A stretch of 11,615 nt of DNA from Gemmatimonadota bacterium (lineage in GTDB: Bacteria > Latescibacterota > UBA2968 > UBA8231), in the NCBI GenBank assembly GCA_038128265.1, contig JAYPJE010000056.1:1-11615 (forward strand), written 5' to 3'. Made by a program: the position numbers and the translations under genes. Position 1 is the first letter of the stretch. Every line of letters starts with the position of its first letter. Shown piece by piece: positions 1 to 11,615 of the stretch. The notes below the pieces were generated by a model that was given only the letters and a program-made list of their open reading frames with translations, had not been told where the DNA came from and made no database searches.

Positions 1-611
1 ATATCGCGGTGCGCATCCCAGCGGTCGCGTCGCGCACCCTCGGCCATGTGCTGGGCAGCGCCCTCGGCAAACCACATGGGCACCACCGTGCTCATTACCG
101 GGTAGGAAGCGATCGCATCGGGATAGCCCACTAAAATATCGGGGCGATTTTTCTCGCGCTGATAGCCAAAGTACTGTAAGTAGAGCGCCGGCACGCGCTG
201 CACCGTCTTGCGCGAAACGCCCAGCGAAACGATGTGGGTGAATTCGTGTGTGATTACGTTGCGCAGCCAGTCACTCGTTCCGCGCAGCTCGTAGTCGTGA
301 TCGAGCGACGTAGTCCAAATCTCGATGGTGTCGTGGTAGAAAAAGGCCGCACCGTTGGCGTAGTCATCGTAGTCTTTTAGAACGATGCGCACCTTTTCAC
401 GCGGCTCATAGCCGTAGAGCTGCGTGATGGGACCATAGGCATCTTCCGCTATATTAGCCGCCCGACTAGCGGCTTCTTCCAACCCCTGGTGGTAGAGCAC
501 GCGAAAGTGCTCTGTCTCAAATACCTGCCACTGCAGTTCGGGATGGTTTTGCGCGTCCACGCCGCGCGAATACAGCAGAAAAACTATCAGTGAAAAACGC
601 CATGCCCTCAC
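1..611 (-). CDS. Exported gluzincin (peptidase MA-like) domain protein, N-terminal ~203 aa; runs off the window start
   Basis: Hand translation, absent from the ORF track. The GTG start at 611 overlaps the TGA of the upstream gene (GTGA). It reads MRAWRFSLIVFLLYSRGVDA|QNHPELQWQVFETEHFRVLYHQG...DYDDYANGAA...WLRNVITHEFTHIV...VPMWFAEGAAQH and stays open to position 1. HEFTH is at 234-248 and the downstream Glu of P-x-WF-x-EG is at 63-65. Confidence 0.88.
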   Translation of the reverse strand, partial: MRAWRFSLIVFLLYSRGVDAQNHPELQWQVFETEHFRVLYHQGLEEAASRAANIAEDAYGPITQLYGYEPREKVRIVLKDYDDYANGAAFFYHDTIEIWTTSLDHDYELRGTSDWLRNVITHEFTHIVSLGVSRKTVQRVPALYLQYFGYQREKNRPDILVGYPDAIASYPVMSTVVPMWFAEGAAQHMAEGARRDRWDAHRD

Positions 612-3457
612 TGGCTCACCGCCATCTTTACGAGGGCGCTGGCGCTGCGCGAAGCCGTTTTTGCCCGCAGCTTCAGCAGGTATACCCCGCTGGCATACGC
701 ATCCACATCCCAGGCGATATCGTTTTCCCCGACGTGACCGACCCGTGCCATGCGCTCGACGAGCGCGCCTAGTCCATCGTAGACCTCCACATCAACGGAG
801 GCCGCTTCGCGCAGAAAAAAGCGCAGATGGACGCGCGTGCCGTCGGCTACGGGGTTGGGATAGCAGTAGACGCGCTCCAAGAGGCTATCCGCCCTGTCCG
901 GCTCTTCCAGTAGGCCCTTCGAGCGGACAAAGCGCATGCCGTCGGCGCGCCCATCGGCCTGTCCCCAATCGGCCACAGTGCCCACGTACTGCGAATCGAC
1001 CGCGCGCAAATCCCACACGTACAGCGCGTCCTCGGCGAGGGCCGCAAGGTCGAGCAACCCATCGCCGTCAAAGTCGGCGACCACCGGCGCATGCACGGGC
1101 GGCCTCGCCATGAGCAAGGGAAAACCCGGCACCATGCGTCCCGTTTGCCCCATGGCGTAGACGCCGTGCGCGCCGGCCAAGACAATCTCTCCGTCGCCGC
1201 GCCCGTCGACATCGGCCACCACTGGATCGTAGACCATGCGTCCAGCCTGCGCATAGCGCGGCAAGGCCGCGGGAAAATTGGCCTGCTGCACGCCGGTAGC
1301 ATCCAGCACGTGAACCTCGTTGACCCCCGCAAAGACGCCTTCCAACAAGCCATCGCCATCTACGTCCCCCAGCGCCGGTGCGGCCAGCAGCGAGTCGTTC
1401 AGTGCTACAACGCTATCGCCTAACCGTATCCGGCCATCGTGCCCCGCTACGAATGTATACACTTCGTCGCCCTGTTCGGCCCAAAGCCCCGGCAGCGGCT
1501 GCCGATGGCCATCGCCTTGCGCATGGGCCAGCACGCCGCTAAATCCCACCTCATTGCCATAGAGCGATCGAAATCCCCCCTCATCGCTGTCGATTATGGC
1601 GCGCAAGGCACCGTCACGCGCGTCGATTTCTTCAACGCGGTCCTCTACGACCAGCGCGAGCGTTGGTTCAGTCGCGCTACCAGCGCGGCGAAAGCGCCCA
1701 AATAGCGCATCGCGCAGATTGCCTGCCAGCGCGTGTCGCCACAGAGGGCTCTCGCCGCCTGCCTCCCAGGCCTCAACCGCGCCGTCTCGCTGCACAAAGA
1801 GTTCGGCACGCCCGTCGCCGTCGATATCGCCGGCGGCCAGAAAGTGGCCCCCGCCAATGCGCCACTGCGAGAAACCACCGCCCATCTCGGCGTAGCGCAG
1901 ACCGGACGTGTCTTCAACCAGCAATTCGACTTGGCCATCGCCGTCGATATCGGCTGCCTGCAGCCGCCGACCGCCCTCTACGGCCTGCGGCCAGCCCGCC
2001 GCCTGGCGACCAAAGCGGATGGCTACTTGTATGCGATCCTCGCTCTCCGACAGCACTTCGACTTCTATGCCCGTGGCCCACCCGTCGTTGCTGCGCGAAT
2101 TGGGCTGGGTTTCCGCACCGAACAGGCGCGGACCGTCGGCGCGAAAGGGATCGTCCTGCGAGCCTTCGATTTGCCGCAGACGTTCAAATAGCGGATAGCC
2201 TATATCGCGGTAGCCGTCGGCCTCTTCGAGGGCAATCCCCGGCTGCACCGGATCGTTGTTCATCGTCCCGGCTGGCCGCTCGCCTATGACCCGCTCATCG
2301 ACATGCCAAATGAGCAGGCCTGAACCCGGCACAAACGCATCGTATTCGTCCACGCCCAGCCACACGCCCTCATTCGCTGCGGAAAAATCAATCTCGTCTT
2401 CGCCAATCCAAGCAATTTCGTCGGGATCGGCCCCGACGACCTGCATACCCTCAGGCGCGCCCTGGCGCGCGCGGCGCTGACGGTGCTCCAGTAGAAAGTA
2501 CTCTTCATCGTCGATGGGAATGCGCACCGCTTTGGGCCATTCCCCCGCGCGGTCCGTGGCCAAAATCGACACCACCGTGTCGCGCATCACTTCAAGCGGC
2601 TCAATCCACCCCAAGTGTGCTTTGCTCCAAGCCATCGGATGGGGAGCCACAAAACCAACGACGGGATCCAAGCTATCGCGGCGCACAAAGCCCAGCGCGT
2701 TGGCCCCCACGTCCATTAGACTCCAGCCGCCTAAGGCCGGCAGGCCATCGGCAAAGTTCGACAGGCCCGGCAGGCCGAGCTGATGGCCAAAAAACTTAGC
2801 CATCAGGCCGTTTAACCCACCGCGACCGCTATCGCTGGGCGACTCGGGCAAAATCCACGCCCGTTCGATTGCGACATCGCCGATGCGCAGGGGCCCACCG
2901 GCGTACTGGGCGAAATCGCTCTCTTCCAAAAATACCGAGCGGATATCGTTGAGCTGGCCGGTCTCGTGTCCAACCCCAGCGTGCACGATGAGAAAGCTGT
3001 TAAAATCGGCCAGATTGGGGCCATCGGGATCGGCCGCGGCCCGCTCGAGCGCATCGCGCAGCAGCTCGATCCAGCGCTGACCTATTTCTTCGCCACTGCG
3101 ACCATTGCCATAGTGCAGCATGCTTTGAGGCATTGTGTACGCCGCCTCATTGGCACGTGGATATACCTCGTAGACCATATCGACGCGCCCCTCGGATACG
3201 ACGTCGTAGTAGCGGCTGAGGGCATTCAGATGATGTTGGAAATAGATTCGATCGTGCGGCGGTAGATCGTACGGCAGTGCATAGTCGGCACGCGCCTCGT
3301 CGGCGCTGCGCAGATCAAAAAGCCCCCGCCCCGTCGTGGTAAATTCGTCTGTCTCTTCGTAGGGAAAATCCACTCTCAGAGCGAGAATCCGCCACTCCTG
3401 CGCACGGGCCACGGCGGCGCACAAGAGTAGCGGGATGACGATGCGGATCAATGACAA
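608..3457 (-). CDS. Secreted M6 (immune inhibitor A-like) metallopeptidase-like protein with degenerate zinc site, FG-GAP-like repeats and a C-terminal T9SS type A sorting domain
   Basis: 949-aa ORF with signal peptide (..AAVARA|QEW). M6-type motifs: ILALRVDF, IVHAGVGHE, GHQLGLP, WSLMDVG (Met-turn), EYFLLEHR, GLLIWHVDE, LEEADG. Five DxDGxG repeats. C-terminal YCYPNPV...VEVYDGLG...WD...SGVYLLKL...VKMAV. The start is TTG (3457 or 3451) and is uncertain. Confidence 0.88.
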   Translation of the reverse strand: MSLIRIVIPLLLCAAVARAQEWRILALRVDFPYEETDEFTTTGRGLFDLRSADEARADYALPYDLPPHDRIYFQHHLNALSRYYDVVSEGRVDMVYEVYPRANEAAYTMPQSMLHYGNGRSGEEIGQRWIELLRDALERAAADPDGPNLADFNSFLIVHAGVGHETGQLNDIRSVFLEESDFAQYAGGPLRIGDVAIERAWILPESPSDSGRGGLNGLMAKFFGHQLGLPGLSNFADGLPALGGWSLMDVGANALGFVRRDSLDPVVGFVAPHPMAWSKAHLGWIEPLEVMRDTVVSILATDRAGEWPKAVRIPIDDEEYFLLEHRQRRARQGAPEGMQVVGADPDEIAWIGEDEIDFSAANEGVWLGVDEYDAFVPGSGLLIWHVDERVIGERPAGTMNNDPVQPGIALEEADGYRDIGYPLFERLRQIEGSQDDPFRADGPRLFGAETQPNSRSNDGWATGIEVEVLSESEDRIQVAIRFGRQAAGWPQAVEGGRRLQAADIDGDGQVELLVEDTSGLRYAEMGGGFSQWRIGGGHFLAAGDIDGDGRAELFVQRDGAVEAWEAGGESPLWRHALAGNLRDALFGRFRRAGSATEPTLALVVEDRVEEIDARDGALRAIIDSDEGGFRSLYGNEVGFSGVLAHAQGDGHRQPLPGLWAEQGDEVYTFVAGHDGRIRLGDSVVALNDSLLAAPALGDVDGDGLLEGVFAGVNEVHVLDATGVQQANFPAALPRYAQAGRMVYDPVVADVDGRGDGEIVLAGAHGVYAMGQTGRMVPGFPLLMARPPVHAPVVADFDGDGLLDLAALAEDALYVWDLRAVDSQYVGTVADWGQADGRADGMRFVRSKGLLEEPDRADSLLERVYCYPNPVADGTRVHLRFFLREAASVDVEVYDGLGALVERMARVGHVGENDIAWDVDAYASGVYLLKLRAKTASRSASALVKMAVSQ
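1046..1958 (-). repeat. Protein-level FG-GAP/VCBS-like calcium-binding repeats (five copies), probable beta-propeller
   Basis: AADIDGDGQVELLV, AGDIDGDGRAELFV, LGDVDGDGLLEGVF, VADVDGRGDGEIVL and VADFDGDGLLDLAA in the 949-aa translation, with intervening (G/N)FP/GWP motifs. Confidence 0.8.
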
Positions 3458-3543: not shown

Positions 3544-4593
3544 TTAGAAAATCAGGTTGAGCGAGAAACGCGTATTGTCCTGCATCGGCGTTTCTTCGCC
3601 CGTCAGATACGCCACGTCGATTTGGAACCGGTTGTATTTCAGGCCGATGCCGAACGTCGGCGTATTGAGCTCTCCGTCGCGGTCCATAGAGTAGCCGGCG
3701 CGCAGCGCGAAAAACGCGTCGTCCTGATGGGCGGACAACCCGTATTTATACTCGCCGCCCACGTGGAGATCCATCTCCTTGAACTCGTCGCCGAGCGGAT
3801 CGTCGGCCCATGCCTTAAACAGGTTGCTCACAAACGAGCCATCGGCGATGAGGGGCTTGTAGAGGTCGAGCGAGAGCAGCACGTCGTGGTACTGCGTGTC
3901 CATCACCTCGTACGCCATCCCAAGGACCAAGTGCTGGGGCAGTGGATCTGCTTGGCTCGCATCGATGTAGGCAATTTTGGGTCCCAAGTTGCGCAGAGCG
4001 GCCCCAACGGTAACGTGCGTCGTCGCCTTCCACAAAAAGCCCAAATCGGCGGCGAAGCTATTGCCCACTCCCTTACCGCGCTCGATGCCAGCCCCCTGAT
4101 CGGCCAAGTTGCTGCGAATAAACTTCAAGCCGATGCCGGCCGATGAGTTATCGCCAATCTCAGCCCCATAGGCGGCCGATAGCGCCACGTCGTAGCTGCG
4201 GAAAGTCCCCTGTGCATTGCCGCGTTCGTCGGTCCGCGTCTGCTCTCCGAGATTGAGCAGCGAAACGTTGAGGCCGATATTTCCCCAACCTTCTACGGGC
4301 GTGGAATAGGCCAGAAATTCGTAGGATAAATCGTCGGCCAGGCCCGGCAGCCATTTGCTGTGCGTGAAATTGATTTTCTTCTTTGTCTGTCCGGCGAGCG
4401 CAGCCGGATTGAAGTAGCTGGCCGTGGCATCGTCGGCAATAGCGACATAGGATTCGCCCATGGCGATGGCGCGCGCCCCAGGCTCAATAAGCAAGAACAG
4501 CACGGCAGCGCGACTCTCTGGCGTAGCGCTGGCCCTATCGGTTGTGACCAATAGACAGAAGGTGGCCAACAGCACGGCGCTGATTTTTTTCAT
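3544..4593 (-). CDS. porV: PorV/PorQ-family T9SS outer-membrane beta-barrel (PorV-like), 349 aa
   Basis: N-terminal motif AVLFLLIEPGARAIAMGESYVAIADDATASYFNPAAL, plus HSKWLPGLADDL, GIGLKFIRSNL, NLGPKIAY..DPLP and a C-terminal Phe (LNLIF). It lies directly downstream of the porU-like gene. Start moved from 4647 to ATG 4593 (MKKISAVLL signal peptide) because of the strong SD. Confidence 0.88.
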   Translation of the reverse strand: MKKISAVLLATFCLLVTTDRASATPESRAAVLFLLIEPGARAIAMGESYVAIADDATASYFNPAALAGQTKKKINFTHSKWLPGLADDLSYEFLAYSTPVEGWGNIGLNVSLLNLGEQTRTDERGNAQGTFRSYDVALSAAYGAEIGDNSSAGIGLKFIRSNLADQGAGIERGKGVGNSFAADLGFLWKATTHVTVGAALRNLGPKIAYIDASQADPLPQHLVLGMAYEVMDTQYHDVLLSLDLYKPLIADGSFVSNLFKAWADDPLGDEFKEMDLHVGGEYKYGLSAHQDDAFFALRAGYSMDRDGELNTPTFGIGLKYNRFQIDVAYLTGEETPMQDNTRFSLNLIF

Positions 4594-4600
4594 AACGACG

Positions 4601-4608
4601 TCCTCCTC
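4601..4608 (-). promoter_or_regulatory. Shine-Dalgarno site of porV
   Basis: GAGGAGGA on the minus strand, 7 nt before ATG 4593. Confidence 0.85.
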
Positions 4609-4711
4609 GGACATGTAAAAACAACTATGACGGCGCACAAACCGCATTGCGGTGCCGCCGGCGCTGATAACGCGATATCCGTGCTACAAAGGCGCTCCTA
4701 TGGTTCCGCTG

Positions 4712-7700
4712 TTATTTGGCAATCTGCAGGGCGGATGCGCGCTCGGCGACTCCACCCTCCATGCGATCAGCCTCTAGCCTATAAAGATAAGTACCATTGG
4801 CCAGATTCGCAGGTCTCTGCCAGAGAATCTGGTTGTATCCCTCGGCGCTTGCCGCCTCGATTTCATCCACCAGTCGGCCGCTGAGAGCAAAAATCTGAAT
4901 GCGCGCCGAAAGGGCCTCTTCGGCCAGTTCGTAGGTAAAATGTCCGCTATCGCCGCGCAGTGGATTGGGATGAAATAGCGCGTTCCTGATAATCGATTCC
5001 TTGCTTGCCACCAGCTCAAACACGGCCTCTGCGCGCGACGAGTTATTGAACGTATCCCATGCTTTCAGACGTATCTCGTGCTGACCGAGTTCCAAGCTGG
5101 GTAGCGTAAACTCTACAACCCCCTCGCGAAAGTCTCCTTCGAGCACGTTAAAAAACTCCGTCGTGTTAAAGATCTCATCGTCGATTGTCAGCTCGATGGC
5201 ATGCCCCGTCTCATTGGTAATATTTATACCGCTGGGGTCGCGAATCGCGGCCATGAGAACGGGTGCACCAGCGACCTTATCGCCGCTTTTAAACGAGCCC
5301 AACCCTTTAAAGCCAATGCGAATTTGCGGGCCCTCCGTATCCAATTCAATGTCGGAGGCCGTGCCTTCGATCAGCAAATCTTCAAGCGATCCGTACGCGG
5401 TGGGCGCATCGTTGCTCCACGCATAGGCGCTAATGCGCCCGTCGATACCCCCATAGCTGATATCTTTGGGAACGCGAAACTGACCGCTGAAACGACCATT
5501 TACCACCTCGTAACGACCGCGAAATAGATAAGCGCCCGGCTGCCGGTAGCGCAGACCGTCCAATACGCTCAACTCAGCGGAGTCAAAGGCCTGTAGCCAA
5601 ACGTACCCGTTGTAGTTATCGGCAGCAGTGCCCGTTTCGTCCAGCACCTGACCGCGCACATCGACCACGCCTAGTGCACTCAGCGGTCCATCAATTTCGA
5701 GACCAATCTCGTAGCGCGGCTGGGCCAGTCGCTGCAGCGGGTCACCAAAGATCGAATAGCGCCTCATATTGCGGATACCTACCAGGTCGCTGATGTTCAT
5801 CTGTTGGCGCGCAATATGCTTGGCTTCCATTAGGGCCAAACCCACCGGCACGTGCTCGCGCTCGCTGCGGTACATCTGTTTGTGAAAGGCGGCAGCGAGC
5901 AGAATGTTGCTCAGGTGAAAACCGACGCGCGTGGCCGAAATCATACCGATCACGCCACCGTCTGGCATCTTCAGCAGCTCTTCTGGCATAGACGTCTTTA
6001 CCGGATCGTCAAACACGCCCACCTGACTGGCCGCGGTATAGAATAAGGGCAAGCGTTTGCCGTTGTCGACTTCGCCAATATCGCGGGAGATCCGAAACAT
6101 CTGTTCGTGCGCCAGCACGTCGGGATTGCCGTGCCCAACGTAGGTGAGAATAAGTGAGCCCTCGTTAAAACGGCGAATAAATTCGTCGCGCGCGCGCGGC
6201 TTGGTGCGCCCTTCAAAGGGAAATTGAGCCAGATAGAGCTTGTCGATATTGATCCCCGGAGGAAATGAATTCTGCGCCATAAACTCGCTGTCCGTCAGAA
6301 AGAACGTCTCGGAATCCAGCGGGTGGTCAGGGTTGACCACATCGTCGGCCACCAGCAGAACGCGGCTCTGCCATAGACCCAGTTCGGGTTCGCGATCGTA
6401 GGCGATGATCTTGTCGACTATGCGATCGGCCTCTTCGGCCAACTGCACGGGAATGCGCCCGATAGCCATATCGGGCAGCTCGTCGTCGCCCAGCAAATAC
6501 ACATACCATTCGTCGTACGTGCTGTCACCGTCCTGATAGGGCGGTATCCAATTGCCGTTACTCGTCTTCGAGTTGTTCTTGTAATCGTAGGAACCGTCGC
6601 CTAACAGCAGCACGTACATGGGCGCGCGCTGCCAGTTGGCCTCGGCGTAGCCGAGAAAATTTCGCAGAGCAGAGGGGTCCAGCATACCGCCGGAAAACTC
6701 GTCGTATACGTCTTGTATATCGACCGTTTGGGCTACGGGGGGTGGACCCCAGCGGTCGTCGGCGCCGCGCCATGCCGCCAGGCGCTCGGCAGCCGCGGCA
6801 AAATCCGCGTGATAGACAATGACGTAGTCGGCGCCGTTGCCCGTGGACAACAGCGAACTCGGCCGATCCTCTACAATCCGCTTGGGCTTCAGCCACGTAG
6901 ATTCACCGCCGACCACATACTCTCCCGGTGTGGGCAGCGCATCGTCCTGAAAAACGAGCGTTCCACCGTCCGCATCGTAGACAAAGTCGCGTATTTCCGT
7001 TAGCTCGCCTCCGACTTCAAATACGCGCGGCTCCTCTTCGGCAAATCCCTCTAATGCGTATTCAGCCGCGGCGTTTTTCACGGGCGAAAAAAAGCGTAAG
7101 CGCCCGCGCTCTGCGCTAAAGCCGCGGCTGTACTCGAGCTCGTACCAGTCAAAGCGCGCCGGGTCGCCGGCGTGATACAGCCCCAATTCATTCAGCCCCT
7201 CGACCGGACCCGCGGCGCTGCGCAACTCCTCCCGCACGCGCGTAGCGCTATCAAAGGAGATACGCCCAACATCGTTGCCGTTCCAGCGCACCGCGAAGCG
7301 CGAGAGATTGCCCCCAATACCATTGAAGCCCAGGCGAATGTCGACCGGCTCGTCGACGGCATCGCGGACGAGCACGCGGTAGTTGCGCGCGTTGCCGCGG
7401 AAGTCTTCGCCATACCACGTATAGCCCGACTTTATGCCGAAAGTCTGATAGAGAATAAACTGCTCGTCTTCGCTGTGCAGATACACGCGATAGCTCTGCG
7501 GTCGCTCCGGTGTTTCGCGGGTTAGGGCCCCGCTGCGCTCAACCGCGCGCTGCCCCTCCACGCCTCCGGCAAAGCCCAGCCAATACGTATTGTCGTTGGT
7601 GTAGAGGTTTTCTCTCCAAACGTATCGCGACTGTTTGCCGTCGTATTCCCAGCGCTGCGGAGGTTCGCCGTAGAAAAGGACGAAGTCGGACGGGTCAAAG

Positions 7701-8443
7701 CGCCCGTCGTTGCCGTCTTCTACAACCAGTCCCATCTCCCGCCACGCACGCGGCGCCTCCACGACCTTTGCGGAGAGCATTTGTCCTCCCCCGTACATCA
7801 GGCGCAGCGTCTGCGGATCGATATCGTCGAGCGCTATGCCCGCCTCTTCCAGATCCTCACCCGTTATGCGGAACATCCCCTGCTCGTTTACCACGACGCG
7901 CAGCCAGCGGCCCGTTTCCTGGGCCCCCTTGGCCACGCGGCGCGGACTCCGCGGCAGGCGCCACGAGGCAGCCTGCTCGTAATTGCTTATAACCTGGGCG
8001 TAATAGGGCTCGGCGTAGGCATCGGCGCCCCACGCAGCAGTGCGAAATGCTCCCCCGTCAGTGGGGAATACAAGATCGACTACCACGCGCTCGATCGCCT
8101 CTTTGTCTCCTTTGTCCACAGTAGCGGCAAAGGCCAGTTCCACCACGCGCTGACGGCGCGCCATCCCCTCGCTTCCCAAGGCGGCAAAGACGGCGGCATC
8201 CTCGCCCGTAAGGCGACGCCCATCGGCTGTAAAAGCCTCGACCCGCGCGATGCCCACATCGCCTTCCAACGGCACACCGACTAGAAAGGTTGCACCCGCA
8301 CTGCACGCCCGCGCGCTCTCCGGGTGGTATTGCAGTCGAACACCCCCAACGTGCGCGTCAATTACCTGTAGCTGCGCGTGCAGTTCTCCGGCGAGCACAA
8401 TGCCGGCCGCAAGCGCGTAGCATAGCCATCGATTCATGTTCAT
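4712..8443 (-). CDS. porU: T9SS sortase PorU-like protein (peptidase C25/gingipain fold) with C-terminal sorting domain; expected catalytic Cys replaced by Ser
   Basis: 1243 aa with signal peptide (..GELHA|Q). PorU-type motifs: GMFRITG, DFVLFYG, NLYTNDNTYWL, VYDEFSGG..DPSALRNF, YVLLLGDGSYDYKN, IGRIPV, VLLVADD, TYVGHG...LAHE, ISATR, FGDP, FRVPKDISY, DTEGPQI, DPSGIN..GH, LKAWDTFNNSS. CTD with FHPNP..QIFALSGRLV..LANGTYLYRL. Start is ATG 8443 or 8437. Confidence 0.92.
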   Translation of the reverse strand: MNMNRWLCYALAAGIVLAGELHAQLQVIDAHVGGVRLQYHPESARACSAGATFLVGVPLEGDVGIARVEAFTADGRRLTGEDAAVFAALGSEGMARRQRVVELAFAATVDKGDKEAIERVVVDLVFPTDGGAFRTAAWGADAYAEPYYAQVISNYEQAASWRLPRSPRRVAKGAQETGRWLRVVVNEQGMFRITGEDLEEAGIALDDIDPQTLRLMYGGGQMLSAKVVEAPRAWREMGLVVEDGNDGRFDPSDFVLFYGEPPQRWEYDGKQSRYVWRENLYTNDNTYWLGFAGGVEGQRAVERSGALTRETPERPQSYRVYLHSEDEQFILYQTFGIKSGYTWYGEDFRGNARNYRVLVRDAVDEPVDIRLGFNGIGGNLSRFAVRWNGNDVGRISFDSATRVREELRSAAGPVEGLNELGLYHAGDPARFDWYELEYSRGFSAERGRLRFFSPVKNAAAEYALEGFAEEEPRVFEVGGELTEIRDFVYDADGGTLVFQDDALPTPGEYVVGGESTWLKPKRIVEDRPSSLLSTGNGADYVIVYHADFAAAAERLAAWRGADDRWGPPPVAQTVDIQDVYDEFSGGMLDPSALRNFLGYAEANWQRAPMYVLLLGDGSYDYKNNSKTSNGNWIPPYQDGDSTYDEWYVYLLGDDELPDMAIGRIPVQLAEEADRIVDKIIAYDREPELGLWQSRVLLVADDVVNPDHPLDSETFFLTDSEFMAQNSFPPGINIDKLYLAQFPFEGRTKPRARDEFIRRFNEGSLILTYVGHGNPDVLAHEQMFRISRDIGEVDNGKRLPLFYTAASQVGVFDDPVKTSMPEELLKMPDGGVIGMISATRVGFHLSNILLAAAFHKQMYRSEREHVPVGLALMEAKHIARQQMNISDLVGIRNMRRYSIFGDPLQRLAQPRYEIGLEIDGPLSALGVVDVRGQVLDETGTAADNYNGYVWLQAFDSAELSVLDGLRYRQPGAYLFRGRYEVVNGRFSGQFRVPKDISYGGIDGRISAYAWSNDAPTAYGSLEDLLIEGTASDIELDTEGPQIRIGFKGLGSFKSGDKVAGAPVLMAAIRDPSGINITNETGHAIELTIDDEIFNTTEFFNVLEGDFREGVVEFTLPSLELGQHEIRLKAWDTFNNSSRAEAVFELVASKESIIRNALFHPNPLRGDSGHFTYELAEEALSARIQIFALSGRLVDEIEAASAEGYNQILWQRPANLANGTYLYRLEADRMEGGVAERASALQIAK

Positions 8444-8989: not shown

Positions 8990-9292
8990 TTAGATCAGCA
9001 TGTCCTCGATTTCGCGCTGCACCTGTTCGTCGCGTACCTGGTCGATCACCAGTTTAAAGTAGCGCGCCGCGCCGCTGGTAATCAGCCGCTGAATCGCATC
9101 CATTTCCTCTTCGCTATATGCGCCGGACTCTTTAACGAGCTCCATATACTCCGCCTTGGCATCCTTGTCTAGGTCGGAAATCGAAGCCAGCATATCAAAT
9201 AGCTTGTAAGCCGCCTGGCTCTCCAAACAGCGCTCGACGATAAAGGCCAAGCGCTCGTTGCGCACGCTCGTCTGCGTTTCGAGGTTCTCCAT
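8990..9292 (-). CDS. Hypothetical acidic, probably all-helical cytoplasmic protein, 100 aa
   Basis: ATG with AGGA upstream (9302-9305), natural-looking composition with amphipathic helical pattern, and it fills the gap between rpmB and an AT-rich promoter region. No family recognised. Confidence 0.8.
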   Translation of the reverse strand: MENLETQTSVRNERLAFIVERCLESQAAYKLFDMLASISDLDKDAKAEYMELVKESGAYSEEEMDAIQRLITSGAARYFKLVIDQVRDEQVQREIEDMLI

Positions 9293-9523: not shown

Positions 9524-9552
9524 TTGTTGCCAGGAATGGGCTATGCTATTTT
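9524..9552 (+). promoter_or_regulatory. Putative extended -10 promoter of the Trm112-family gene
   Basis: TTGTTG (9524-9529), 17-nt spacer ending TGC, TATTTT (9547-9552). Same -10 hexamer as the rpmB promoter. Confidence 0.5.
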
Positions 9553-9581
9553 TAAACAAACCTTTTGCGAAATGGAACGAT

Positions 9582-9830
9582 ATGATCGATAAGGAACTGC
9601 TGGATATACTCGCCTGCCCAGAAGATAAGTCCCCCGTCCAACTGGCGGATCAAGCGCTGATAGACCAGCTCAACGAGCGCATCGCCAACGGCCAGCTCAG
9701 CAATCGCGGAGGGCAGCAAGTCGAAAAGGCCATCGATGGAGGCCTCGTGCGGGCAGACGGCGCCTACCTCTACCCAATCGACGACGGGATTCCCATCATG
9801 CTTATAGACGAGGCTATTCCCCTGACTTAG
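9582..9830 (+). CDS. Trm112/YcaR (UPF0434)-family protein, 82 aa
   Basis: MIDKELLDILACPEDK...LYPIDDGIPIMLIDEAIPL matches the N- and C-terminal family signatures. Start moved from 9543 to ATG 9582. Confidence 0.92.
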   Translation: MIDKELLDILACPEDKSPVQLADQALIDQLNERIANGQLSNRGGQQVEKAIDGGLVRADGAYLYPIDDGIPIMLIDEAIPLT

Positions 9831-10359
9831 GGAGTATCTCTTCAACTTTGATCAGCGTCTGGCTCCGCTGCTGGTTCTGCAATAACAGCACGCGCACGCC
9901 CTGCTTTCGCGCTTCCTCGGCGTAGTTGTCAATTAATTCGACGGTGCGCTGCCTGCGCAGCAGCTTGAGCTCGGCCAAACGGTTAAATCCCTCTTTTGTG
10001 ACGACGCCCAGCGGCTGTCCCTGATAGTATATAGTGTAGGCGCGCACTCCCACATTGGGCTCTTCTGATGGGATAGCGGCGCGTGGCTTCCCGCCGTAGG
10101 TCAACGCCCAGCCAATGATATTGACGAGCACCACCGACAGATCGCTGACCCAAGCAGCCAAATTGAGCCGGTCAAATACCCATAGCGGCACTAGACAAAC
10201 AAGCATTAGACTCGCCATAAAGAAAAACACCAGCCGATGACCGGCCACGTTCAGACCGCGGCGCTTGCGCACGAGCATCGAGCCGATCTGCACCAACGCA
10301 CCGCAGAAAAACAGGGCGAATAACAGCAACATGGCCAATTCGCGCACGCCGCTACTCAA
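9814..10359 (-). CDS. Hypothetical membrane protein: about three N-terminal TM helices and a soluble C-terminal domain, 181 aa
   Basis: Hydrophobic stretches LAMLLLFALFFCGALVQIGSML, LVFFFMASLMLVCLVPLWVF and WVSDLSVVLVNIIGWALTY. Start set at TTG 10359 because AAGGGAGGA lies 6 nt upstream. Its 3' end overlaps the Trm112 gene by 17 bp. Confidence 0.78.
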   Translation of the reverse strand: MSSGVRELAMLLLFALFFCGALVQIGSMLVRKRRGLNVAGHRLVFFFMASLMLVCLVPLWVFDRLNLAAWVSDLSVVLVNIIGWALTYGGKPRAAIPSEEPNVGVRAYTIYYQGQPLGVVTKEGFNRLAELKLLRRQRTVELIDNYAEEARKQGVRVLLLQNQQRSQTLIKVEEILPKSGE

Positions 10360-10533
10360 TTGGAGTCCTCCCTTGCTGGAGCACTGTGCCACCAGAGCAC
10401 GTCATTGCCCCTCCTGCACACAGACGATGGCAAGACGAGAGCAGCCCGCCGTTGCGCAGCAACACGCGCGCCTCCGCAACAGCGACACCGCATCGCATGC
10501 ACGGGCTGCGCACCCGCGCCCTGCTGGTCGGCC

Positions 10534-11615
10534 ATGAGCGACCGAATATTCTGGCCGCTCGTAGCATGTGTGGCCATCATAGCCCATTTCCCGACGCTGG
10601 GCGCTGACTTCGTCAAAGATGATCTGGCACTCATTCTCAGCGCACGTTCGCTACCTAGCCATGCGCTTACCCATTCCTGGCCAGGCGGTTTCTTCCGGCC
10701 GAGTGCCGAGGTGTTTCTGGCACTACAGCGCGCGCTCTTTTCCACCAACGCCCTACCCTATCACGCCGTTTCGCTCCTCATTCACGCCCTGTCGGCGGCT
10801 GCGGCCCACCGCATCTTCGCGCGCCTATCGGACAACGCTCACATCAATCGAAATGCCGCTGCGCTCTTTCTCCTCCACCCTTTGCAAACGGAAAGCGTCA
10901 GTTGGATTTCGGGTCAAATGAGCCAACTTTCTAGTCTGTGTGCTCTATTGACCCTTTACTTCGCGCTGCATAAACACCCCGCAGCCAATGTGGCTATCCT
11001 AGCGGTGGCTGCAGTGGGCATGGGGTTCTACGAGCATTATTTCGTCGCATTCACACTCGTGCTGTTTCTGTGCATCGCCCTCCCCAACGCCCGCTACTAC
11101 ATAACGCGTTGGCGGTTGGCCACACTGCTATTGGGCCTCCCCCTCCTAAGTGCGGGATATGCCTATTGGCGATTTGTCGAGCTCGATCTGCGCGGAGGCA
11201 ACTACGCCCTATCGATTGCGCCCACGGCGATTCTGACAAACGCCACCTATTACGTCTATCTGCTCTTGGGCGGCAGCGCCATCGGCGGACGCATAGCGCA
11301 CTATGCGCCATCGCTCGCCTCTGAGTGGTCTCATATGGCGTATGTAGTCCCCCCCCTACTCATTGCAACTGTAGCCGTCTTATCTGCCGCTTTTGCAATG
11401 CGACGGCACGGCCTGTGCGCTTGGGCGCCGATGCGAGGACTATTGATTGGCATAGCCGCGCTGTTTATCAGTCTGCTGCCAGCGCTCGTCCTATCCGAAC
11501 GCCCGCGACGACTCTCTTACCTCGCCATCGTCTGCTTTGCATTTATACTCTCGCTCGCCATCGCCCAACTGCGCGCCCGTTCTAAGCGGCTCGGACGCGC
11601 TGCGCTGCTCTCCAT
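10534..11615 (+). CDS. GT-C-fold integral membrane glycosyltransferase (TMTC/ArnT/PMT-like), partial; runs off the window end
   Basis: Hand translation, absent from the ORF track, open for ~360 codons: MSDRIFWPLVACVAIIAHFPTLGADFVKDD...GFFRP...YHAVSLLIH...ALFLLHPLQTESVSWISG...GFYE...ERPRRLSY. DD after TM1 (10618-10623) and many TM segments. No clear SD. Confidence 0.85.
   Translation, partial: MSDRIFWPLVACVAIIAHFPTLGADFVKDDLALILSARSLPSHALTHSWPGGFFRPSAEVFLALQRALFSTNALPYHAVSLLIHALSAAAAHRIFARLSDNAHINRNAAALFLLHPLQTESVSWISGQMSQLSSLCALLTLYFALHKHPAANVAILAVAAVGMGFYEHYFVAFTLVLFLCIALPNARYYITRWRLATLLLGLPLLSAGYAYWRFVELDLRGGNYALSIAPTAILTNATYYVYLLLGGSAIGGRIAHYAPSLASEWSHMAYVVPPLLIATVAVLSAAFAMRRHGLCAWAPMRGLLIGIAALFISLLPALVLSERPRRLSYLAIVCFAFILSLAIAQLRARSKRLGRAALLS

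Follow-up and report, generated by a model that had tools for sequence, protein, structure and literature searches.

A PorU orthologue of Latescibacterota with serine at the nucleophile position, possibly a serine-type sortase of the T9SS

PorU of Porphyromonas gingivalis (PG0026; family C25, clan CD) is the described protein to which the one analysed here is to be compared. Its catalytic mutant is C690A (PMC5562754), and its Arg722 is a conserved feature of PorU that gingipains lack (PMC4560394). The CTD of PorU itself stays unprocessed, and the cut consensus for cargo in P. gingivalis is T/E/D/N before the cut and G/A/S after it (PMC10202324); in Prevotella intermedia the cut site is PT/GI (PMC11969387). 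A further component, PorZ, is an A-LPS-binding protein whose interaction with PorU takes place when A-LPS is present (PMC8545088). In the clan CD enzymes described (caspases, legumains and gingipains), the catalytic His and the nucleophile are more than 5 Å apart on either side of the substrate, so that the His cannot deprotonate the nucleophile (PMC10088814). With the His at this distance, a plain exchange of Cys for Ser should not work. Serine is also far less acidic than cysteine. MCA4 of T. brucei (clan CD, C14B), which has a His/Ser pair, is inactive and gains weak activity as S219C; Ser-nucleophile activity in the caspase fold was not known to the authors of that 2011 paper (PMC3220528), and the consulted part of a 2025 review of clan CD names serine just as a general protease class (PMC12445089). 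In the literature consulted, mostly freely accessible papers, no Ser-type PorU and no active Ser in clan CD is described.

The window, meaning the whole stretch of DNA analysed, is 11,615 nucleotides long, and its features are collected in Table 1. The protein of interest shares with PorU its length, domain order, C25 fold and His motif, together with the Arg722 equivalent, a CTD of its own, an adjoining porV, a PorZ-like partner and a cargo linker motif in which the T before the presumed cut is followed by a small and a hydrophobic residue. It differs in that its host phylum is Latescibacterota rather than Bacteroidota, in having Ser for Cys690, in a catalytic domain free of Cys, and in the clade-specific residues Ala805, Gln807, Gly841 and His843. 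The PorU profile NF033707 is matched over its full length at 656 bits (curated cut-off 420), and P. gingivalis PorU (PDB 6za2) is matched by phmmer at E 6e-60, which bears out the assignment to PorU made in the initial annotation. The PorV-family barrel encoded next to it is presumably the membrane anchor of PorU, and the order porU then porV is unchanged in four other loci (L083, L128, L130 and L229). Relatives also share the arrangement with the M6-like gene further downstream.

Table 1. Features of the window (positions count from its first letter)
Feature	Position	Strand	Remarks
porU orthologue	4712-8443	-	1243 aa; N-terminal region, C25 domain, Ig-like domains, CTD; signal peptide by eye
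C25 gingipain-type catalytic domain	5729-6826	-	residues 540-905; PF01364 E 9e-77; no Cys inside
Ser806 codon AGT	6026-6028	-	position of PorU Cys690
His771-Gly772	6128-6133	-	His771 is CAC, 6131-6133; invariant in Ser clade (92/92)
Arg839	5927-5929	-	PorU Arg722 by alignment; 92/92 in Ser clade
Gly841-Phe842-His843	5915-5923	-	Ser-clade-specific; strand matching RgpB Gln282-Trp284 (S1 lid)
Asp700-Asp701	6341-6346	-	invariant acids; loop aligned with RgpB Ser150-Glu152
CTD of PorU itself	4769-4969	-	TIGR04183, residues 1159-1225; 21 bits, slightly below cut-off 23
PorV-family barrel	3544-4647	-	directly downstream of porU; NF033709 260 bits (cut-off 90); NF033710 177 bits (below 250)
M6-like protein, FG-GAP repeats and CTD	608-3457	-	KFFGHQLG replaces zinc motif; NF052323 288 bits (below 600)
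Secreted-looking protein, N-terminal part	3-611	-	intact HEFTH zinc motif; truncated by contig start
Ribosomal protein L28	8604-8825	+	family match
Trm112-like protein	9543-9830	+	family match

In the phmmer alignment to 6za2, YVGHG falls on YAGHG, and FYTAASQVGVFD falls on WITATCDFANYD. Because the nucleophile motif aligns without gaps, Ser806 is the counterpart of Cys690. The initial annotation had described an intact His motif, an AGT codon for Ser806, a Ser in place of the nucleophilic Cys and only two Cys, both early in the protein; all of this holds, the two Cys being residues 8 and 47. The C25 domain, the catalytic His and the PorU-specific Arg are all in place, as is the T9SS context (its own CTD, SprA, PorV, PorZ and CTD cargo), and the nucleophilic Cys common to PorU, C25 and the clan CD cysteine peptidases is replaced by Ser. 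The protein is therefore a PorU orthologue that lacks the Cys by which C25 peptidases are defined. Two ways around this conclusion were considered and ruled out. A shift of register, in which the Ser merely precedes a lost Cys, is contradicted by the motif being ungapped on both sides and by the relatives, which read TAACQVGAFDDP, TATCQVGAFDDP and TAACAVGQFDHP. An alternative Cys nucleophile is contradicted by the domain having no Cys here and by Cys836 occurring in just 27 of 92 clade members.

The AGT codon is one base from TGT, and the initial annotation had allowed for a sequencing error or a recent inactivating mutation in this genome. This is now refuted. Logan contigs from two other studies cover the codon: X5 record 4 spans 5966-6675 with no differences, and X6 record 7 spans 5713-6286 with three differences, none of which affects the codon. 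In one RNA run (X20), no close match spans the codon. The phylum was then searched over 168 genomes. In family f1 the site was read in 74 of 76 genomes, belonging to 18 genera, at a total of 97 PorU loci. Ser was found in all 74 genomes, with the codons AGC at 54 loci, AGT at 42 and TGC at one. The annotation had named TGY in close relatives as the sign that would count against its reading, and 96 of the 97 family loci have AGY. It had also proposed, as a sign of selection, a Ser conserved across a clade and written with both AGY and TCN codons: the conservation is there, the double codon usage is not, AGY alone being used and TCN being absent from the 97 loci. Nor do these loci have Gly, Asn, Thr, Ile or Arg at the site, all one base from AGY, or Ala.

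Outside family f1, AGC is found in 2/2 loci of family f9, and all 29 loci read from nine further families have TGY. Among homologues, the best 120 of 659 comprise 119 with Ser and one with Cys, and the His is kept in all. A set of 150 representatives at 50% identity contains 133 with Cys, 13 with Ser (all top-ranking), three unaligned and one misaligned, and no independent switch to Ser elsewhere in C25; none was seen either among 68 scored domains from a survey of 57 genome loci (65 His/Cys and 3 His/Ser, the latter all clade members; 9 partial rows do not cover the site), both surveys being small samples of 14,411 matches.

In a tree of 132 rows, one well-supported clade holds 56 Ser and 3 Cys rows. 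In a tree of 36 rows, the Cys-bearing P0130 is sister to the rest (90/87), while the Cys forms L036 and P0112 are nested deep among Ser forms, and the supported branches force three changes; a constraint placing all Ser forms together is rejected (p-AU 0.00035). The simplest reading is a single switch from Cys to Ser followed by two nested returns to Cys. L036 (G016:C108) and P0112 are natural Ser-to-Cys revertants; G016 carries one Ser copy and one Cys copy, and in P0112 a Thr precedes the Cys, like the ancestral motif. A tree of 92 sequences gives 14 codon changes against one amino-acid change at the Ser site, so that the Ser is under purifying selection, yet it is one among many constrained sites: a median of 8 amino-acid changes per site is found, and 62 of the 365 sites do not vary. 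The Ser swap is genuine; it is old and extends across a whole lineage of uncultured bacteria.

The rest of the active site was compared between 46 Ser sequences, less than 80% identical to each other, and 130 Cys sequences. Residues conserved in Cys-PorU and retained in the Ser set are Asp700, Asp701, Glu720, Gly770, His771, Gly772, His779, Glu780, Asp812, Glu821, Arg839 and Asn846, and the conserved residues lost from the catalytic region are the Cys itself and Asn767 only. By analogy with the gingipains, His771 would be the catalytic His and Gly772 presumably provides the oxyanion hole; RgpB Glu152, which aligns in the loop of the two invariant acids, is presumably its third catalytic residue. 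The Ser clade has gained Ala805, Gln807, Pro820, Gly841 and His843, the last of these being His in 44/46 Ser and 11/130 Cys sequences, and in 90/92 of the larger clade set. A profile alignment to RgpB places Gly841 on Gln282; carried one residue further, it pairs His843 with Trp284, which in RgpB touches P1 and forms the lid of the S1 pocket (PMC4357240). From its place in the alignment, His843 is a speculative candidate for a general base.

AlphaFold2 was used to model residues 530-920, with a pLDDT of 94. The closest structural matches of the model are the gingipains RgpB and Kgp (1cvr, 4ief, 6i9a), led by RgpB (Z 42, rmsd 2.1 over 327 residues, TM 0.74), and these are nearer than latent PorU 6za2 (Z 22, TM 0.49). 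The gingipains are Cys hydrolases for Arg or Lys and lack the PorU Arg, and the Trp284 lid stands where the clade has His843. It is worth adding that, in the N-terminal columns of alignment A2, the PorU profile matches gingipain pro-domains (4ief_A and 5mun_A, E ~1e-21).

The initial annotation had offered a choice between a Ser sortase and a dead scaffold. The genomes incline us towards a site that remains in use: several of them have no C25 protein other than the Ser form, PorZ is retained alongside it, the cut motif is kept, and the Ser has been exchanged for nothing but Cys. We favour the reading, at a probability of roughly 0.55, that the protein serves this lineage as its functional T9SS signal peptidase/sortase, with Ser as the nucleophile. 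As its partners and its cut sites are kept, it may be a working Ser enzyme in a fold known to work only with Cys. Cargo would exit through SprA onto PorV, and PorU would bind the linker at T[AGS][VI], some 10-25 residues ahead of the CTD, with the cut falling after the Thr. Ser806 would attack the Thr carbonyl, the oxyanion being held by the backbone NH of Ser806 and Gly772, and the CTD would depart to leave an acyl-oxyester. An amine on the glycolipid delivered by PorZ would resolve this ester and so anchor the cargo, or water would resolve it and release the cargo. Since His771 lies across the substrate in clan CD, activation of the Ser would need either substrate assistance or a new base. 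The best, if speculative, candidate would be His843, which arose at the S1-lid position together with the Ser. Taken in full, this would be a natural Ser peptidase/transpeptidase in the caspase-gingipain fold, with His843 recruited as base, acting as a thiol-free sortase that cuts between T and AV and anchors dozens of surface proteins, and would make clan CD a mixed-nucleophile clan; we give this full version about even odds.

It is possible, though we rather doubt it, that the Ser form is instead dead and serves as a cargo-binding scaffold in a PorU-PorV-PorZ complex, holding the linker in the old active site while the cargo retains its CTD or is processed by another enzyme, either PorU2 or an unrelated protease. 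MCA4 is a precedent, sharing the natural His/Ser pair in a caspase-type fold with Ser for Cys and the His kept; the geometry of clan CD points the same way, and the structure of human separase C2029S, which we take to be an inactivating mutant, is among the fold matches of the model. If the pocket bound cargo without cutting it, its residues, PorZ and the linker motif would be retained all the same, as would a Ser isosteric with Cys. On the other hand, the His, Gly, Arg and acids are invariant, and the site, which has tolerated two returns to Cys, has not drifted to Gly, Asn, Thr or Ala at any of the 97 loci.

The comparison with MCA4 turns on other enzymes in the same genomes, since MCA4 coexists with active paralogues that process it. 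A candidate for such a role is PorU2 (NF052324, putative), which has a C25 domain and a CTD and occurs in the same genomes as Ser PorU; it differs in its length of ~1800-1950 aa, in keeping His/Cys, in forming a separate clade and in being found without PorZ in families f2-f4. Genome G000 encodes a PorU2-like second C25 protein (G000:C29:27111-32597, reverse strand; L001; a frame of 1828 aa with His/Cys intact and a CTD), and such a His/Cys protein is present in most f1 genera, which would suit a scaffold served by another enzyme. However, exactly one C25 match is found in 26 of the 31 genomes of genus g14, and in all five single-contig g14 genomes (completeness 93-95%) PF01364 at E<=1 matches the Ser PorU and nothing else, with no His/Cys paralogue among C25 proteins; a non-C25 peptidase may still be present. 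The same five genomes have 49-104 CTD matches each, and SprA and 11-12 PorV-family matches were found in 3/3 of the single-contig g14 genomes tested; barrels in such number could hold uncleaved cargo, as the scaffold reading would have it. Unlike MCA4, the Ser PorU is also still accompanied by what are presumed to be its substrate motif and the partner that delivers the acceptor. Furthermore, PorU2 does not look like the partner of a scaffold, because in f2-f4, where a PorU2-like protein is the only C25 protein found, neither PorZ nor the cargo motif accompanies it. Neither PorU nor PorZ was found in f2-f4 genomes, for example G047, which has SprA, 34 PorV-family matches and 10 CTD matches, with cargo lacking the cut motif; these families possibly have a T9SS that anchors cargo without processing it.

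The PorZ profile PF21544 finds a match in G000, in 73 of 75 other f1 genomes and in 2/2 f9 genomes, and in none of 56 f2-f4 genomes, all of which lack PorU. It also gave no match in several families with Cys-PorU (f5-f7, f11, f13 and f14), and is therefore not fully sensitive. The PorZ-like protein of G000 (C6:91859-94078, 739 aa) matches PDB 5m11 (PG93), which we take to be PorZ, along its length, and scores 177 bits against NF052228, below the cut-off of 260. A second clade of Ser-PorU paralogues (AASQM/LGxFDDP) is seen in L230, L231 and L223, and second paralogues lie directly behind a PorZ-like gene of their own in 3/3 such loci examined.

This retention and joint duplication of PorZ-like genes bears on a further alternative, which we consider quite improbable, namely that the Ser has brought a changed chemistry or role: a slow enzyme that only hydrolyses and so releases cargo, a long-lived acyl-Ser tether, or transfer to a hydroxyl rather than an amine. 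Oxyesters resist aminolysis more than thioesters do, and several residues at the S1 rim have altered along with the Ser, both of which would fit. The PorZ-like partners, however, point to the usual glycolipid acceptor route, and nothing positive speaks for another acceptor.

The cut motif was examined in the linkers of cargo, using the pattern T[AGS][VI], which was picked after viewing G000 cargo and scored from 35 to 5 residues before the PNP motif of the CTD; it agrees with both published cut consensuses. Cargo loci were the best-scoring CTDs, with near-identical linkers collapsed, and related genomes are not independent samples, in these counts as in those of co-retention. The motif is present in 18/44 linkers of G000, in 15/33 distinct linkers of genus g14, which is of the Ser-only type (best 59 of 512 matches, 8 unread), in 7/15 from other f1 genera (best 18 of 64, 3 unread) and in 6/27 from Cys-PorU outgroups (best 30 of 322, 3 unread). 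It was found in 0/40 from genomes without PorU (best 61 of 71, 7 unread), and control windows further upstream have it at 2-5%. In f9, with Ser, the strict motif was found in 0/9 (best 12 of 78, 2 unread), with PTVV and PTDI as near matches. The motif thus being kept with Ser PorU and not found without PorU, the site is still recognised, which speaks for recognition and not for cleavage. The linker before PorU's own CTD is without the motif, in line with the CTD of PorU not being processed. G000 also encodes dozens of proteins of 600-900 aa with a TPNGDG-type C-terminal tail, mostly without T[AGS][VI], which form a second class of cargo.

If the Ser form is active, as we favour, it would be a Ser enzyme in a fold whose His is unable to activate the nucleophile and in which exchange of Cys for Ser left MCA4 inactive; it would illustrate the recruitment of a new base and provide a protein ligase that resists oxidation, for which the natural Cys revertants and the Cys sister branch are ready controls. 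If it is dead, dozens of genomes with up to ~100 CTD cargoes run T9SS attachment without a catalytic C25 enzyme, and therefore have an unknown CTD peptidase or a non-covalent route of anchoring. Either outcome is new for T9SS biology.

The M6-like protein encoded beside porU and porV lies in the same orientation as these genes and is retained in f1 and f9 loci; its linker lacks T[AGS][VI]. It is a second apparent pseudo-protease at this locus, and a neighbour that is likewise without its catalytic motif would accord with a dead PorU. The secreted-looking protein at 3-611 (reverse strand) gave no Pfam or NCBIfam match, and the open reading frames at 8990-9292, 9814-10392 and 10360-11613 gave none in the family search. 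Named homologues are labelled Ca. Latescibacterota, with two close records labelled Gemmatimonadota, and matching DNA comes mainly from estuary, marine and biofilm metagenomes.
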